Below, in pieces: positions 6,128 to 59,980 of a stretch of 64,000 nucleotides of DNA. The notes below the pieces were generated by a model. That model was not told the origin of the DNA. It made no database searches and worked only from the letters and a program-made list of their open reading frames with translations. How positions within the stretch are numbered: the stretch's first letter is position 1; the number at the start of each line of letters is the position of its first letter. The translations under genes and the position numbers were made by a program. Source of the DNA: Somniosus microcephalus (Eukaryota); contig CM126205.1 of NCBI GenBank assembly GCA_052327205.1, forward strand, positions 299,956,001-300,020,000, given 5' to 3'.

Positions 6128-6196
6128 ATATCCCGTCACAGGCGAAACCACTCTCAGCACAACCTTACAGAAATTACTGGGATGGTGGATCAGTCT
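6128..6196 (+). CDS. ARHGAP15: ARHGAP15 internal coding exon (equivalent to human exon 3), 69 nt, phase 0/0: ISRHRRNHSQHNLTEITGMVDQS
   Basis: Acceptor ttttgtcttgcag and donor gtaagt. The peptide ISRHRRNHSQH matches the recalled human ARHGAP15 segment just before the PH domain, and the exon splices in frame to the next one. Confidence 0.93.
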
Positions 6197-12746: not shown

Positions 12747-13705
12747 TGTAAAGGGTTTTCTTTGTTACTGGTCCCCCGTTACACACAGTTCTTGGACGTC
12801 AGGATTTATAAGAACAAAATACACACGGCACAGGGTTTTGGTTCAACCTTTGATTCATTTGTTTATTGAACACACACACACAATTACTTCCCCAGTATAA
12901 ATCTCTACGATTTATATTAGGCTAACAACCTCAAAATACAAACCCCTACGCAAGGGTCATTTGCATCGACACAATATGACACAATTAAACCCATCCGCGA
13001 TTTGACTGTTACATATAAAGTTACCCAGACTCAATCACAAAACCCTTATTGTGATCTGACTGAAACTCTCAAACTTACTCAGACTCAAACACAAGAGCCC
13101 CCTCTATGATTTGACTGAAACATACAATCACCACTCCCGATCGGCTGTCTCTTGGAGTTGATTGTAGGCCCAAATCTTTCTGTTCGCTGTTCTGCCGTTG
13201 GCTTCCCACACCACTGTCTTCAAAGTGATCTTTTACTTAAACCAAAACCAACTTGCAATCTTGAAACACATATCCTGGTCCCTCCTATGCACATGATGGC
13301 CATATCAAAATGTGCGAATTGTCCCTCGTATTGTCCATTGATTAGAGATACCTTTCTGACAATGCAACCTTCCCAAGGTGACTGCATGTGTGAAGTTGTT
13401 GGTTTCTGTTAGCATTCGTATTCAAATTGTTCGAGGCCCGGCCCATTGTCTAGGCCTGCACTGAAACTAGTTATTCGGGGGCCATGGTCTTCTTTAACAA
13501 TGTAAACTCTTAAGGTAAATGAATATGCGAATGTTCTTGTTCAGAAACATTCGTATTTTAGATTGTCTGTGATCCAGTCGTAGTTTCGGCTGCAATGTTT
13601 GAATTAACCCTTTATTGCTGAGCCCTTTTTGCGGGCTCTGTAGTTCTGGGCTTTTATATTTCATAGTCCAATTTTTACCATTGGGGGAGAGGAATGAATC
13701 CTACA
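12747..13705 (-). mobile_element. Solo LTR, 959 bp, 4-bp TSD TTAA (Gypsy- or ERV-like)
   Basis: Termini TGTA..TACA, TTAA at 12743-12746 and 13706-13709, minus-strand AATAAA near 12865, and internal repeats of about 54 bp at about 13000-13130. Removing it restores the CR1. Confidence 0.75.
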
Positions 13706-15576: not shown

Positions 15577-18204
15577 TAATTAGCTAATACTGCAGAATGT
15601 GATAGGTTTAGACTGCTATTCAACTACTGCAGATTATCATGCAAATGATAGAAGCTTGGGCCATTTCTTGGTCCAACTGTAGGATTGGCCCTATAGATGA
15701 TTAAAGGTGGAAGTGAGTTGGGAACACCCATAAAAAGGCAAATGGGTTTTATATGTGGAACATTGGATAGGAAAGCAAGGAAATGATGTTGAATTTGAAC
15801 AGAACATTGGTTAGATCATAGAGGAAGCATTGCATGCAGTTCTTGGCACCCCATTGTAGGAAAGATATTAGAGCCATGGAAACAGTGCTCAGAAGGATCA
15901 GCGAAGAATGGTTCCCAGAATAAAAGGTTATAGTATCAGTCAGCATCTGTGAAGAGAACAGATGAGTAATGTTTCAGGTGTAGATTCTTCACATAAAACT
16001 TTTCAAATGCAAAATCCATAGCTTTTTCCAAAAAATAAAATTGTGATGGTATGGATTTACATTATTTTCCACAGTGTAATATAACATGGTATTTGATTCC
16101 TCTGGTTCAGTATCCACTCATTGCTGAACAAGAGATGTGAAAGAGGCATTAAACAGAGCCTGTGGTGGAATACTTCTAAACGACGATTGAATCTGCTACA
16201 TCTAGACAGTAGAAGATGCTGCTCCTAACTCACCTTTAATTGGCAGGAAGCATTAAAGACAACAACAATTTCCTAGGCTCAAGGGTTAATTATCCAAAGC
16301 ATTTTCAATCACAATATGTATTTCTGGCACATCTGTAGGAAGTAATCAATTTGGATTTGTGACATACTTCAATTTGTTCAGATGCTATTTTCAATTCGCC
16401 CAAATTACATTTTCAAAATTCCAAGCGAATTTTCTTTAGAACCTGTCGCATTTTCACCTTCCCGTGTTATTTTCGAATCAAAATTTCTCTGGTAATTGCG
16501 AGAGGAGGAAAGAGGAATTGCATCAATCTCCCAATATCCTAAAGTTGTAAGAAATGCAATTGAAAAATAGAATTTCACAGATTTAGGATATTTCCAGCTT
16601 CTGATGAAATTTGGTGCCACAATGTCATTGCGGAATAAATAATTGACATTGTTCCTGTCGTTAGGAGGGAGTATGGCAATTTCTCCCGCTGTTTTCTAGG
16701 ACTGGCATCTGTTATGTGATGGCTGCAAGAATGGCATTATTCAGTGTTAGAGTTCCTGTTTCAGCTGATGTTCACCTCAGAGAAATTGTTAATAACATGG
16801 AGTCTTTCGAAGTGGTCTAAGTGTAAGATTAGAAGTCACAAAAATTCACTATGAACAGGGAAAAAGTGACCACCTCATTTGGGTGCACATGAAATAGCAG
16901 TGCATGTGTTACACATGAGTAAAATGATCACCCTGTAACTGAATGATGCTTATTAGAAAATGCTCAGAGTTTCTTTTCATTAGCTTTTTTGGCTGTTTTA
17001 CTACATGCCCAGTACTGTTTACTGTCGTTCATGCAGAAATGATTTCCTCTACTTTGAACTTTAGATGGCATATTTTATTTCTCTTTTATCCCAGAATGTT
17101 TTATGATTAGGCTTCTATTCAAAGCAGCCACTGCAACTTTTAAACATACAGAGAACATCATTAGCGTTGGTTGTCTGTGTTTATCGTACATTGTTATTTC
17201 TTTTTCAACGGCTACTCACATCCTTCATGCATCAATTGTAATTGTATGCATTCATCACGTATTCCATGAAAAACAGCCAATGCAAAGAAATGTCACTTTT
17301 TAATTTTTTTTTTGCATCTCAAGAAGCAAGACATTTTCATTTAAAAAAAACATATTTTGAATTTCAGGCCCCAGGTGACCAAGAAAAGTTCTTTGGAAAT
17401 GTTAACCTAATAGTAGAATGCCCAGATGTCTGAACTGACATTCTCAACAAGATAATGTAGGCCCTTCAGAATACTGTAGAGGCCAAATAGGCAGAGCTCC
17501 AAGTACCTGGAGATGCTTGTTAAAAATTTGGTCAGTGATGAGAGAACACTTAAATATTCCATCATCTCTCTTGCAGGGTAAGGAGAGCAATTCTTGGCTA
17601 AGGACAATGAAACAAATCAGTAGACATTAGGGTTGGACTCCGCTTAAAATCTAAGCCTACACAAAATTCTCAAAAAATGACCCTTAAAAGTTTGATTCTA
17701 GCCCCTTTAAGATTACAGAAGCTTTGTGATGATGTGACTGAAGTAATACTTCCAGAATCAAAAGAAAGGATGTGTTGCTTTGTGCAGGAGTGCCTGTGGG
17801 AACACTGTAGCCAACAACTGGGACCTGTGGAGCAGCTATCAAGGGAAACATGGTATTATTCTCTCACAGCCTGGAGGATGCAATCTCTGGAGGTGCCTGC
17901 TGGGGAAATTAAACAGATTTTTTAGGGAGGCCATTAGGATATTTACTTTATTCTGAGGAACATCTGTTGTTATAGTGGATAAGGGCTCAGTATGTATAAT
18001 TGGTAAATGTCTCGATGTAGTGTACTATAATAGCTATTGGGTCTTAAATAAGTTGCGGCAGGTAGCATTGGAAATTAACAATAATTTGATATATGACTTC
18101 TCGTTCAGGTTTTTCCTGGACTTTAACTACAATCTGTAATCTGAGCTTAGCTGTTCAGTGGATGAAGTGGTCAGAATAAGATGCCAGGCTGCACTTAATC
18201 TTAG

Positions 18205-19170
18205 AAATACTCAGCAGGTCAGGCAGCATCTGTAGAGAGAGAAACAGAGTTAACGGCCCAGAAATTGGTGTCGGGGGCTTCCCGCGGGTGCAAGGCCCCG
18301 ACCTACACTTACATAGCGCGCCGACAGTTGAAGCCTGGCCCTGCGTGGATTTCCTGTCAGTGGCCCGGTCCAGCTCCCGGCGCACTGTGCTTGCGTGATC
18401 CAGCGGCATAGTTAGTGCGATGAGCCGGCTGGGATCACGTGAGCACTGGGCAACCAATCGGAGGTTGCAAAAGTTCATTCATGAGTTTGATACGTAAGAA
18501 CTGTCAAACTCATGAAAACTCTGGGTTCCCAAAACAGTACTTAAACTTCAAATAAAAGTTTTTAAAAATCCCACTAATTAAATGAACTATTAATAACTGT
18601 AAAAAAACTATTTTAAACAATTATTCAAATTTTTGGAAAAAATAATTTTTTAACAAATCGGGTCTAAAAATACACTTACCTTACTGTAAATTCTTTAAAA
18701 ATAATGAACCTGTGGAAAAAAAATTCTAACTTTAATTAATAGACCACTTACCTTTTAAAACTAATTCCTTACGTCTGCTTTTTTCACGCGTAGAAACCGA
18801 AGGCCTTCACGCACGGGCAAAGCTTAAAAAGATAAGGAATTTCAGCACACACGCGCAGACTCCTGCACACACGCGTTCGACCTCTGAACCCCTTGGTTCA
18901 GAGGAAAGGAAATGCCGGTTTTCCGCGCATGCGCTGTGCATGCTGAAAACCAGCAATTCCATCGGGCCCACACATGAGTACCTCCGTCCGTACTCACGCG
19001 TTGGGACCCGAATTACTGGGCCATTGTTTCAGATCGATGACCCATCATCAGGTCATTGACCTGAAACATTAACTCTGTTTCTCTCTCTACAGATGCTAGC
19101 TGACCTGCTGAGTATTTCCAGCATTTTCTGATTTTATTTCAGATTTCCAGCATCCGCGGTATTTTGCTTT
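18205..19170. mobile_element. Foldback Penelope-LTR-like retro-insertion with a 15-bp TSD, interrupted by a MITE
   Basis: Inverted arms (ctcagcaggtcaggcagcatctgtagagagagaaacagagttaa and its reverse complement). TGCACYTAATCTTAG occurs at 18190-18204 and 19171-19185. Confidence 0.75.
18255..19022. mobile_element. Harbinger-type MITE, 768 bp; direct copy at 33233-33989
   Basis: TIRs GGCCCAGAAATT / AATTACTGGGCC. The insertion adds 3 bp (aac/att) to the host element and is similar to 33233-33989 along its length. Confidence 0.85.
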
Positions 19171-37021: not shown

Positions 37022-37109
37022 GAAAAACTGGACCAGTTCTTGGGTTTGCCTCGAGGGAAACAGAATTGAATTCTACAAAGAACGCAAACAACAAACTTTA
37101 GCCAGTTTG
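37022..37109 (+). CDS. ARHGAP15: ARHGAP15 coding exon (equivalent to human exon 5), 88 nt, phase 2/0: (R)KNWTSSWVCLEGNRIEFYKERKQQTLASL
   Basis: Acceptor ttctttttcag and donor gtaagc. It completes the split AG+G Arg codon and resembles human KNWSTSWIVLSSRRIEFYKESKQQALSNM. Confidence 0.95.
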
Positions 37110-52345: not shown

Positions 52346-53049
52346 TAATGTCCACATTCACTGCAGGTGATGGGGGGTAGGCAACGGGAGGGGTGGGGGA
52401 CACTGAGTACAGGCGTAAACCTGCTGAGATTTTCCCTTTAAACTTTATGTAACCTTACAACCTGCAACAAAAATGAATTTCCAGTGATGGATTTTAAGAA
52501 ATACACATTTATATTCTACACTAATGAGAAAATCTCTCCAATTCATGGTGTCCCTGGAATAAACTAAAAGAACCAGAAAGAAAATGGACACAGTTTTGCA
52601 ACCGGAATAGTGCTTCTCAAACGGATTGAAGATCTGCTGAGAAATTTAGTGACATTAAAGAAATGTTCAAAGTCTTTTTTATAAAATTCTGCTTACAACA
52701 TTTGCGATGATTCCCACACATTAAATACAATACCGCTTGTCAGAATGTAATTAAAGCAGTACCATAAAATACGCTCCAAAAATGTAACTATAGAGCTAAA
52801 AAAGGAAGGAAAATATAAGGTGAGCACATTTTGTTCAGAAGAAAACATTCATCTTATCTGAAATTGCTGTGACATTTTCTTTTAAAGCATCCAATTTATT
52901 GCTGACATGGAGATCTCTTGTGCCCTGCAAAATTGCTACAGTGGTGTCAATTATGGGAAAAATCATAGATTTGGGGAAAGGGGGGTGACCTGATCTGAGA
53001 GCCACTCCAGAGTGTCCTAATCCAGTGAAACCATGCCACTGGCTAAGTA

Positions 53050-53271
53050 ACAACAGAAAATGCTGGAAAAACTCAGCAGGTCAGGCAACATCCGTGGAGA
53101 GAAATTTGAGTTGACGTTTCGGGTTGGACCCTTCTTCAAAAGTTTTGAAGAAGGGTCCTACCCGAAACGTCAACTCAAATTTCTCTCCACGGATGTTGCC
53201 TGACCTGCTGAGTTTTTCCAGCATTTTCTGTTGTTATTTCGGATTTCCAACATCTGCAGTATTTTGCTATC
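53050..53271. mobile_element. Foldback Penelope-LTR-like retro-insertion with hammerhead-like motifs and a 14-bp TSD
   Basis: 94-bp inverted arms around 53142 with one mismatch. CCACTGGCTAAGTA occurs at 53036-53049 and 53272-53285. Confidence 0.85.
53141..53175 (+). ncRNA. Minimal type I hammerhead-ribozyme-like motif (C3>U variant, probably impaired)
   Basis: AGTT-TTGAAGA-A-GGGT(CCT)ACCC-GAAA-CG-TC-AACT gives stem I, a CUGANGA-like core, stem II, GAAA and a GUC cleavage triplet. Confidence 0.6.
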
Positions 53272-54362
53272 CCACTGGCTAAGTATACAGGTTCCCCAGC
53301 CTTTAGTGTGGTTGCTCAGTTAAGCAGGCCATGGAATAGCCTTTAGGCCGTTTAAAAGATACACCATTTGCAATGGAGTCTCTTTGGATCAATCTCTTCA
53401 ACAAAAGCAGCCTTAGCAGAGTGTGAGACCTGACTTGGAGATAAATGGCAGGCAGGAAGAGTATGTTCTCATATGAAAAGGGGAGATACTTTGAAGAAAA
53501 ACAAGATTAACTAAATAGTCCTAGATTTTCAATGTAGAGTACCCCAGAGTATTTGGCATTCTTCACTGTGTTTACCATTAATTTCAATGGAGTAAATTGC
53601 ATGATAAAATGATATGGAGTTGTTGAACTGAAAAAAGCATTCATATCATGGCCACAGAGAGTTTCTAAAGAGTTTCTCTATGCTGCCCCTGCCTAAGGTT
53701 AGTGTTACACAACGTACCTTATAGATTGAACATCTGTAAGTGTGGATTTTCTGATTGGGTTCATCCAATTTGAGCACGCAAATTGGGTAAACCCAATTGC
53801 GAAGTGGGGCTAAGGTCCATTATGCCAGATCTCTGCTCACTATTGCACCTTCCTCATTTTCCACCATCATATTCACCGAGTGTAGGAAGCACCTGCCCAT
53901 TTTTGTGCGCATGTATACAAATTAGGTGAAAATACCACAATGGTATCATGCCTGTTATTTTTTGTCATTTCTACATCATTTGCATTATCTCATTTTCTTG
54001 CTTATAGAATATGGGTGTCCAAGATCGCTAGGTGATGAGGAGATTGCAGAAAGTCTATTTAAAGAGTGCAGCAGGGAAACTGTTACTAAAAATGTTATTT
54101 CTGGACCATTTTTCTGTTTTATTTTCTATGTCTTTCTACTTTTCGTCTGGACTTGTGGCATTTGCTGTAAGGCTGCCTTCTTTCTCCAACTAGCTGATAG
54201 TGGGCACAATGAGTTTCCCAATGGGAATCTTCCTGTAACTATATTAGCTGATGAAGGAGGAGCAATAGCGGATACACCAGTCAGGTAAGACAGTACCACG
54301 GGGTGTTCTGTGCCTACCCGTCAGTACTTGCATACCCACATCTACAGACAAAGGCACACATA

Positions 54363-58700: not shown

Positions 58701-59777
58701 GATTTAGCCCCACCAGAAATACCAAATGTGATGAATAGCTTTAATCGGTTCTGCAAGTATAAGTTCAGAGCAGGACTGTTTGAAATAAATGGGTTCACAA
58801 TGATCATTTCCTTCCTTACCTTGTTCTTGAACTCATACCAGGAGTTACTGGAAAAAATTTGCTATTTTTATACACATCCTGTCTACTCATACTTAAAGTT
58901 TAGAGGAAATGAAAATAATAAAAGGTATCATGTCACTGTGAACATGGCTGGTTTAAGTTGTGATTTTCTGTCTAAACTCCATTTTGATTTCAAACTTTAA
59001 AAAAAAATACAATGGTCATGTTGCTTTGTTAGCAATTCAAAAGAAAATGAATAAAACATAAACATTTCCATCACAAAGTGATTTCTGTGATGTTGCCACA
59101 ACTTATATTCGCTTGTAATACTTTTGTTCTTGAGCCACATTAAGGAGTGGAATGAATGGAGGACTCTCTGTGGAAAACTAGAATATGGAATTTATTTCAT
59201 GAGTGAGGAAGACCTTGATAACTCACGAGTGGCAAAGTCATGAATAAGTGATCCTGATCTTTCTTTTGACTGGTATAAATTCACTGCTCCATGGCTCCCC
59301 TTTGAAATTTCTGGTTATGCAACTCGTAATTTTTTTTGAAATTTCTCATTTACCTAATTATGATAAGGACAGTTATAAACATGAAGAGTGTTTTAAGGCT
59401 GGTCCCAGTTTAGCTGAACTGCCTTTCATTTCTTTCCTATAGTCCATTACTGCCATCTTGAAAATCACCTTTCAGGGATGAGAAATGGCATTTGTGCAGC
59501 AATTTCAATCCAAAATGGAACATAGTTCAGCCCTGAGTCATTGAGCTAAGGTTTCAGCTCTGTGGCTCCACATGAAGGAAAACTGGTTATATCTTCTTTA
59601 AACCTGAAATGTGTCGGCTGTATCGAATTAAAGTACTGCACTACCACTTCAGTTCCATACAGTGGCTGAAATGTTTTTTAAGAGTATATTCATTTTTTTT
59701 TAGTTCTTTTATTATTTCAGGTAACTGAGCTAAGACACTGCCCTTGCCTGTGAAGTGTAACAATGTGCTGACATTCA

Positions 59778-59980
59778 AGCAGCATCTGTGGAGAGAGAAA
59801 CCTTTTAGGTCGATGACCTTTCATGAGAACTGAAGAAATCTTCCAGTTTTTGACGAAAGGTCATCACCCTGAAACGTTAACTCTGTTTCTCTCTCCACAG
59901 ATGCTGTCTGACCTGCGTATTTCCAGCATTTTCTGTTTTTATTGCAAATTTCCAGCATCTGCAATATTTTGCTTTTGCTG
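59778..59980. mobile_element. Foldback Penelope-LTR-like element, older copy
   Basis: Inverted arms. It contains ttgacga-a-aggtcatcaccct-gaaa-cgttaact and the same 3' tail as the 53050 and 18205 copies. Confidence 0.75.

Follow-up and report, generated by a model that had tools for sequence, protein, structure and literature searches.

A 222-bp foldback in a RhoGAP intron is probably a doubly truncated end of a Penelope-like element, with arms likely made together by twin priming

Introduction

Insertions of EN+ Penelope-like elements (PLEs) leave a recognizable footprint, which in the cited sections of PMC3846280 and PMC8557442 consists of an inverted pLTR, a one-sided tail of 30-40 bp and a TSD, and the way in which this inverted pLTR plus tail is formed is stated to be unresolved in the corresponding sections of PMC8557442 and PMC11167929. 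Arkhipova et al. 2013 read the palindromes at the junctions as the outcome of self-priming on an antisense template (PMC3846280, cited section). For a Poseidon PLE, in vitro work has shown nicking and extension of both strands, with synthesis initiated at two internal sites, one at either boundary of the tail; the protein is predicted to be a dimer, and insertion does not need hammerhead cleavage (PMC11167929). The start site was equal between the strands in that work, hence arms that start at different sites are not accounted for there. Dual hammerhead motifs on opposite strands, 100-700 bp apart, are noted in the cited part of PMC4209133, where the 3′ end of the D. virilis intron is placed at the 5′ edge of helix I. 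The cited part of PMC8557442 lists a CX2-5CxxC linker between RT and EN as a feature of Neptune and Nematis, not of Penelope/Poseidon. Among titles and abstract openings no paper on PLE insertion by twin priming was found, and the literature search returned no paper on miniature PLE foldbacks in sharks. Here we analyzed a hairpin-forming insertion in a 64-kb stretch of Somniosus microcephalus DNA (the window, 64,000 nucleotides). There is good reason to regard it as a recent, doubly 5′-truncated end of an autonomous Neptune-type PLE, the arms of which were likely made together by twin priming and not carried as a hairpin RNA.

Results

Anatomy of the insertion

The arms at 53048-53141 and 53143-53236 (94 bp each) are perfect complements except for one T.T mismatch (53125/53159), only 1 nt lies between them, and the 14-mer at the left is exactly repeated beyond the tail. 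An earlier note on this DNA had claimed this very geometry (94-bp arms, one mismatch, 1-nt loop, tail and exact 14-bp repeat), and it was confirmed from the sequence. Since the left TSD shares 2 nt with the end of the left arm, the insert proper spans 53050-53271 (222 bp) and the tail has 35 nt (Table 1). The hairpin folds with -185.8 kcal/mol (z = -26.6), and 0/200 shuffles were equally stable. The note had also seen a minimal type I hammerhead motif, TTGAAGA-A-GGGT-NNN-ACCC-GAAA-CG-TC-AACT, on each strand. The motif is indeed present in the pLTR part of the arm, once per strand, but only the copy on the + strand keeps the 4-bp stem I (AGTT/AACT); its further parts are a core with U3 (53145-53151), a bulged A, a 4-bp stem II, GAAA and a palindromic CG, with a predicted cut after 53171.

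Host exons were found on the + strand at 6128-6196 and at the position given in Table 1; the best PDB matches of the latter were the PH domains of ARHGAP9/27 (E 0.006). RhoGAP exons lie on the + strand about 450-510 kb downstream. With a PH-domain exon upstream and RhoGAP exons downstream, the intronic placement proposed earlier stands, and from the exon peptide we take the host gene to be ARHGAP15. It is plausible that the hairpin forms a long dsRNA within the host pre-mRNA. The locus itself is ordinary and without sign of function; that the 222-bp insertion was dead on arrival is the best explanation, and by rough extrapolation this genome probably holds several hundred stubs of its kind.

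Two older stubs lie in the same window. The one near the right end has a longer central region and the same layout in an earlier wave, and the other is interrupted by an insert of ~770 bp (about 18256-19030) whose ends are GC-rich and whose middle is AT-rich. Immediately before the ATG, older copies (19080-19095) have an acceptor-like CAG; the young lineage (53180-53195) has CGG there and keeps an upstream CAG at the edge of the hammerhead.

Table 1. Positions of the features in the window
Feature	Position	Strand	Remark
Older two-armed stub split by a later insertion of ~770 bp	18204..19170		9-bp flanking repeat
Host exon, PH domain of an ARHGAP9/12/15/27-type RhoGAP	37022..37109	+	Last host exon found upstream of the insert
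Left TSD, 14 bp	53036..53049		Last 2 nt overlap the arm end (microhomology)
Inverted tail-less arm	53048..53141	-	5′-truncated PLE 3′ end; counted from the tail end, about -134 to -41
Mirror hammerhead motif, cut off inside stem I (2 bp remain)	53109..53141	-	From sequence
Tailed arm	53141..53271	+	5′-truncated PLE 3′ end, -136 to about -6; 1-nt overlap with the left arm at the junction
Minimal type I hammerhead motif	53141..53175	+	From sequence; architecture as in the cited part of PMC4209133
First 26 codons of the PLE ORF	53193..53271	+	Counted from the initial ATG (-84 of the unit) of the long frame, as seen in full-length copies
One-sided 35-nt PLE 'tail'	53237..53271	+	Compare PMC3846280, PMC8557442 and PMC11167929 (cited parts)
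Right TSD, 14 bp	53272..53285		Exact repeat of the left 14-mer
Older two-armed stub, related subfamily (~81-82% identical)	59775..59975		No clear TSD recovered

The parent element

Genome copies were located by sequence patterns, not by alignment search. Exact matches to a 38-mer from the arm number 12,276 in the 6.45-Gb genome, and pairs of matches, tandem or inverted and 3,133-3,154 bp apart, enclose long ORFs that start inside the arm, which defines a unit of ~3.14 kb. The ORF of this unit matches Pfam RVT_1 with E~1e-5, below the cut-off, and ends in a C-terminal GIY-YIG with a score at the Pfam cut-off. Between RT and EN the translation has a CX4CxxC linker (CKRRRCNTC), accompanied by CCHH-type cysteines; the copies translated have near-intact ORFs, all with frameshifts or stops, and the nearest named proteins are from cartilaginous fishes. 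Full-length elements that match the arm at over 95% are present in the genome. Judged by sequence, the arm combines the 3′ terminus of the pLTR with the first 26 codons of an autonomous PLE, so that the link to Penelope suggested in the note, together with its proposed check for RT/GIY-YIG ORFs, was borne out; the linker suggests that the parent probably belongs to the Neptune clade. Partial tandems that form pLTRs and frequent 5′ truncation were also seen (loci L081, L082, L083 and L085), and with an inverted 5′-truncated copy and a one-sided tail of the 30-40-bp class this is an EN+ PLE insertion. A MITE or DNA transposon was rejected, as the termini are asymmetric and ragged, TSDs are mostly 13-16 bp and the sequence derives from an RT element, in agreement with the earlier claim of retrotransposition.

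Several rearranged copies were encountered. In L081:568-3027 a PLE tandem lies within a two-ORF element, the minus-strand ORF of which presumably resembles a Harbinger/PIF DDE nuclease; a 58-bp tandem array at L086:4627-5772 directly adjoins a rearranged PLE cluster; and PLE stubs have been amplified in larger tandem arrays at C4:74100819-74107376 and C5:3150732-3158018 (periods of about 3.26 kb and 1.45 kb). L096 and L130 are complex short insertions with ORF sequence beyond the tail (to about +105) and inverted or tandem repeats, for which a third start site or template jumps are possible.

The hammerhead motif

Rfam gave no hammerhead match for this region at E<=10, and its 14 matches were hairpin-driven or weak and all below the gathering score. 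The core combines U3 with G8, which is neither the C3-G8 nor the U3-A8 pair. This U3 core occurs at 13,653 places in the genome and a C3 core with the same stem at 1,810, and at least 2,543 further copies belong to an older C3 subfamily in which an A-U pair closes the stem. The change from C3 to U had been taken to suggest copying between the arms; it is a trait of the whole young lineage, whose 13,653 copies include those with a near-intact ORF, and carries no information on arm copying. Across the subfamilies the pair 10.1-11.1 is A-U, G-U or G-C, and although the search patterns presuppose the stem and thus bias this covariation test, it suggests that stem II was kept through the subfamilies. 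The literature search found no direct measurement of U3-G8 activity; a natural U3/G8 variant is described in the cited part of PMC7151607 as slower but presumably active.

In the foldback the ribozyme is predicted to be buried in the hairpin, with a stem II probability of 0.00 in the foldback transcript vs about 0.95 in the arm alone. Furthermore, a dimer needs two sense motifs and one transcript carries only one, the two motifs being on opposite strands; hence the reading of the back-to-back hammerheads as a dimer is not supported. The hammerheads in the foldback are predicted to be inactive passengers.

Two-armed insertions

A sample of 73 loci was drawn from the first matches on contig C1 (mostly 0.5-35 Mb, plus one pair at 41.9 Mb); L057, L076 and other listed matches beyond 36 Mb are not part of it, so that pairs are slightly favoured. 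L102 (cut by the edge) and L101 (redundant with L100) were excluded, and L058, L087 and L088 were moved to the two-armed class. Of the 71 insertions that this leaves in the C1 sample, 31 were two-armed, with lengths from 210 bp to 6.9 kb; in the 5′ direction arms extend for as little as 29 bp and for more than 6 kb. Only 6/31 measured 240 bp or less, and the 222-bp foldback is the short end of this continuum, not a separate family. Flanking repeats of at least 9 bp enclosed 27/31 two-armed insertions, mostly with 13-16 bp, vs 11/40 single-armed ones (Fisher p 7e-7), and such repeats arose in 1/600 shuffled flank pairs. In a second set of 50 loci selected by their junction, 48 of which were called two-armed by script, a TSD of at least 9 bp was present in 46/48, with a mode of 14; L080 is the same insertion as L001 and is counted in both sets. 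The composition of the TSDs gave no appearance of microsatellite targeting.

One tailed arm was paired with one tail-less arm, ending about 35 nt earlier, in 30/31 two-armed insertions of the C1 sample, where 44% would be expected if the arms were independent (from the tail frequency of 13/40 in single-armed insertions). The same was seen in 58/60 parsed foldbacks. The rule is broken by L004, with two tailed arms, and by L131, with two tail-less arms. The two 3′ termini of the PLE were also observed as loose ends in contigs of three other organisms.

Junctions and source of the arms

Foldback junctions were collected from 65 loci, of which 60 were parsed; the anchor failed in L007, L010, L019, L027 and L175, and L180 was represented without its five tandem duplicates. 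The overlap at the junction was 0-2 nt in 44/60, and the remainder had 1-8 additional letters; several of these are consistent with snap-back copying by the cDNA of its stem II, in L045 on both ends. Arm concordance was analyzed in 55 insertions, after 4 had been skipped and 1 removed as a duplicate, and in every one the two arms agreed in subfamily variants (permutation mean 14, maximum 28); arms differed by a mean of 0.6 within an insertion vs 3.0 between insertions, and 39/55 pairs were identical over ~78 nt. Both arms of a foldback come from one source.

This concordance, together with insertion-private variants that are found in both arms (L012, L024, L043, L176 and L187), would equally be expected if the PLE origin were the same but the second arm were produced by self-priming or template switching, i.e., by fold-back of the cDNA or by priming on an antisense RNA as Arkhipova et al. 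proposed. Junctions with a loop of 4-6 nt and AA/TT pairing that allows a snap-back in cis are common among 71 matches, and several long insertions have nearly equal arms (L072, L097 and L087). However, a cis fold-back of cDNA from a sense RNA needs the tailed arm to be the longer one. Among 58 foldbacks the tail-less arm reached further 5′ in 23, the tailed arm in 32, and both equally in 3, and in many long insertions (e.g., L082, L084, L085 and L113) the tail-less arm exceeds the other by hundreds to thousands of bases; the tail-less arm being so often the longer one, a simple fold-back of a tailed first cDNA cannot produce this pattern. In addition, loops of 0-1 nt, as in 53050-53271 and in the CTTCAAGAAG type, are too tight for a hairpin primer in cis, and the link of two arms to a TSD of 13-16 bp is left unexplained. 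We therefore consider self-priming or template switching rather unlikely, and twin priming the better account of the two arms.

The reading of the earlier note, a non-autonomous, retrozyme-like hairpin family that moves as a unit of ~220 nt, appears very improbable. At least 131 loci do share the central pattern, 71 match a tighter one, the junction-selected loci cluster at 222-239 bp, and a few junction types recur up to 7 times. The size cluster, however, results from the search pattern used for selection, as the few short insertions in the C1 sample (see above) make clear. Among 57 foldbacks there were 31 junction types, and 10 of the 11 recurrent types had the tail on either side and 7 occurred in more than one loop variant; the type of 53050-53271 recurs 6 times, with CCA/CCT, CAA and TTCA loops. 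Recurrence across tail orientations, loop variants and several subfamilies indicates that junctions are made anew and not inherited, and no inherited master junction, as a mobile hairpin RNA would require, was seen. Neither a head-to-tail tandem of canonical hammerhead units nor a canonical core was found, nor was propagation as a non-autonomous family of its own. With an arm that is the end of an autonomous PLE, a continuum of sizes and junctions formed anew, twin priming of the parent element remains preferred. L004, a 963-bp near-perfect palindrome (L004:1035-1997) in which ~350 bp beyond the tail are mirrored on both sides, might point to a palindrome that DNA repair or inverted duplication generated from a single-armed stub already in place. 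This is nevertheless the least probable reading, because in most loci both arms lie within an intact 13-16-bp TSD, and random repair would not yield the pairing of one tailed with one tail-less arm. L004 was also rejected as a master copy, since the sequence by which it extends past the tail has a single occurrence in the genome, as part of a local, larger palindrome.

5′ ends of the arms

The 5′ ends of the arms cluster at -138 to -126, where 14/36 of the ends between -116 and -238 fall (nominal p 9e-6, for an interval chosen after looking). This is the 5′ edge of stem I, the edge that also marks the intron end of D. virilis (PMC4209133, cited part); we take it to be a polypyrimidine-CAG site and initiator-like sequence, and two arms that both end there give a hairpin of ~230 bp. 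Before the AG at this point 5,956 matches retain C and 187 have another base (about 3%); of 30 loci that were read, at least 2 carry substitutions and not truncations. A cap-derived G at the stop point was unsupported, the non-C base before AG being G in 26, A in 57 and T in 17 of the first 100/187 (by eye), and the G cases mostly fit microhomology (30 loci read). A weaker cluster at -585 to -555 (8/21, nominal p 0.004) is a possible transcription start. It shortly precedes a donor-like GTAAG at -551 in the sequence that encodes the endonuclease (L083 unit); spliced copies joining this candidate donor to the acceptor had 0 matches in the genome. No cluster at the predicted ribozyme cut (-106) was present in the 109 ends listed, among which single-armed cases would be hidden, as the sampling 38-mer spans the cut.

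Discussion

Twin priming at the target accounts for the orientation of the arms, the TSD, the one-tail rule, the arm concordance and the free arm lengths. As read from end products, not from insertion intermediates, the reaction would begin with a PLE endonuclease, probably dimeric, that nicks both target strands about 14 nt apart. Each 3′-OH would then prime reverse transcription of one source RNA, so that one cDNA may start at the site of the tail end and the other at the upstream start site. Both cDNAs would halt at a frequent stop point, -131 to -138, and their free ends would be joined via microhomology of 0-2 nt, sometimes after short snap-back additions. Several points speak against twin priming. 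The biochemistry comes from the Poseidon and not the Neptune clade and showed no strand bias in start site; self-priming on an antisense template (PMC3846280) is a competing account; concordant arms could also arise by cDNA-templated copying or later conversion; and a single RNA would have to serve as template twice, for the same region or at two copies of the pLTR. Moreover, repeats of at least 9 bp also flank 11/40 single-armed copies, and L004 and L131 break the pairing of the arms.

A broader proposal, which we judge about equally likely to hold or to fail, is that PLE inverted-repeat insertions are the product of obligatory asymmetric twin priming, in which a dimeric RT-EN with a stagger of ~14 nt would make two cDNAs on one RNA, one per tail end. 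Mini-foldbacks would reflect run-off at a fixed barrier located on the 5′ border of the hammerhead, and the U3-core lineage would be amplifying now, so that ribozyme cleavage would be dispensable in vivo. If this is true, the young family with its near-intact ORFs offers a direct test system for the structure of inverted pLTR plus tail. The sample analyzed here is large enough to quantify the rules of inverted PLE insertions, and it provides countable rules for any model: two arms come with a 13-16-bp TSD, one arm has a tail and one has none, both have one source, either may be the longer, and the 5′ edge of the hammerhead acts as a stop point. In practice, PLE stubs of this sort are easily mis-annotated as MITEs, microRNA hairpins or retrozymes.

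The closest described insertions are those of Pen2a_Av and its relatives, which in the cited sections of PMC3846280 and PMC8557442 share with the present ones a head-to-head inverted 5′-truncated copy, a tail of 30-40 bp at one end and a TSD around the unit, as well as a pLTR that includes the first ORF codons and non-inverted copies with a TSD-less microhomology junction. Unlike those of Pen2a_Av, the arms here are cut to ~95-130 bp and no ORF body is left, and the TSD is 13-16 bp instead of the 8-10 bp of the rotifer examples given there. The parent resembles Neptune in its C-terminal GIY-YIG with two cysteines inside the motif and in its CX2-5CxxC linker, which Nematis also has (PMC8557442, cited section). 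With PAc, the Poseidon of Anolis, it shares two termini separated by the tail and a hammerhead that overlaps the start region of the ORF; cutting and extension of both strands, as well as insertion without hammerhead cleavage, are established in vitro for PAc (PMC11167929) and would apply here too. It differs from PAc in that the predicted cut site is followed, not preceded, by the ATG, at a distance of about 20 nt, it probably belongs to a different clade, and the inverted arm and the TSD length fall outside the model of PMC11167929. The hammerhead has the architecture of the minimal PLE motifs in the cited part of PMC4209133 (no real stem III, a palindromic CG, a bulged nucleotide before stem II and a short stem I) but departs from them in its core, U3 with G8, and in a loop II of only 3 nt. 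The foldback is, like the metazoan non-LTR retrozymes in the cited parts of PMC7229834 and bioRxiv 10.64898/2026.07.22.740005, non-coding and PLE-related, with a type I hammerhead and a long TSD; whereas those are head-to-tail tandems with canonical ribozymes and circular RNA, here the two arms are arranged head to head and each strand has a single sense motif. The 222-bp hairpin is thus the smallest size of an already published PLE footprint, not a new type of element.
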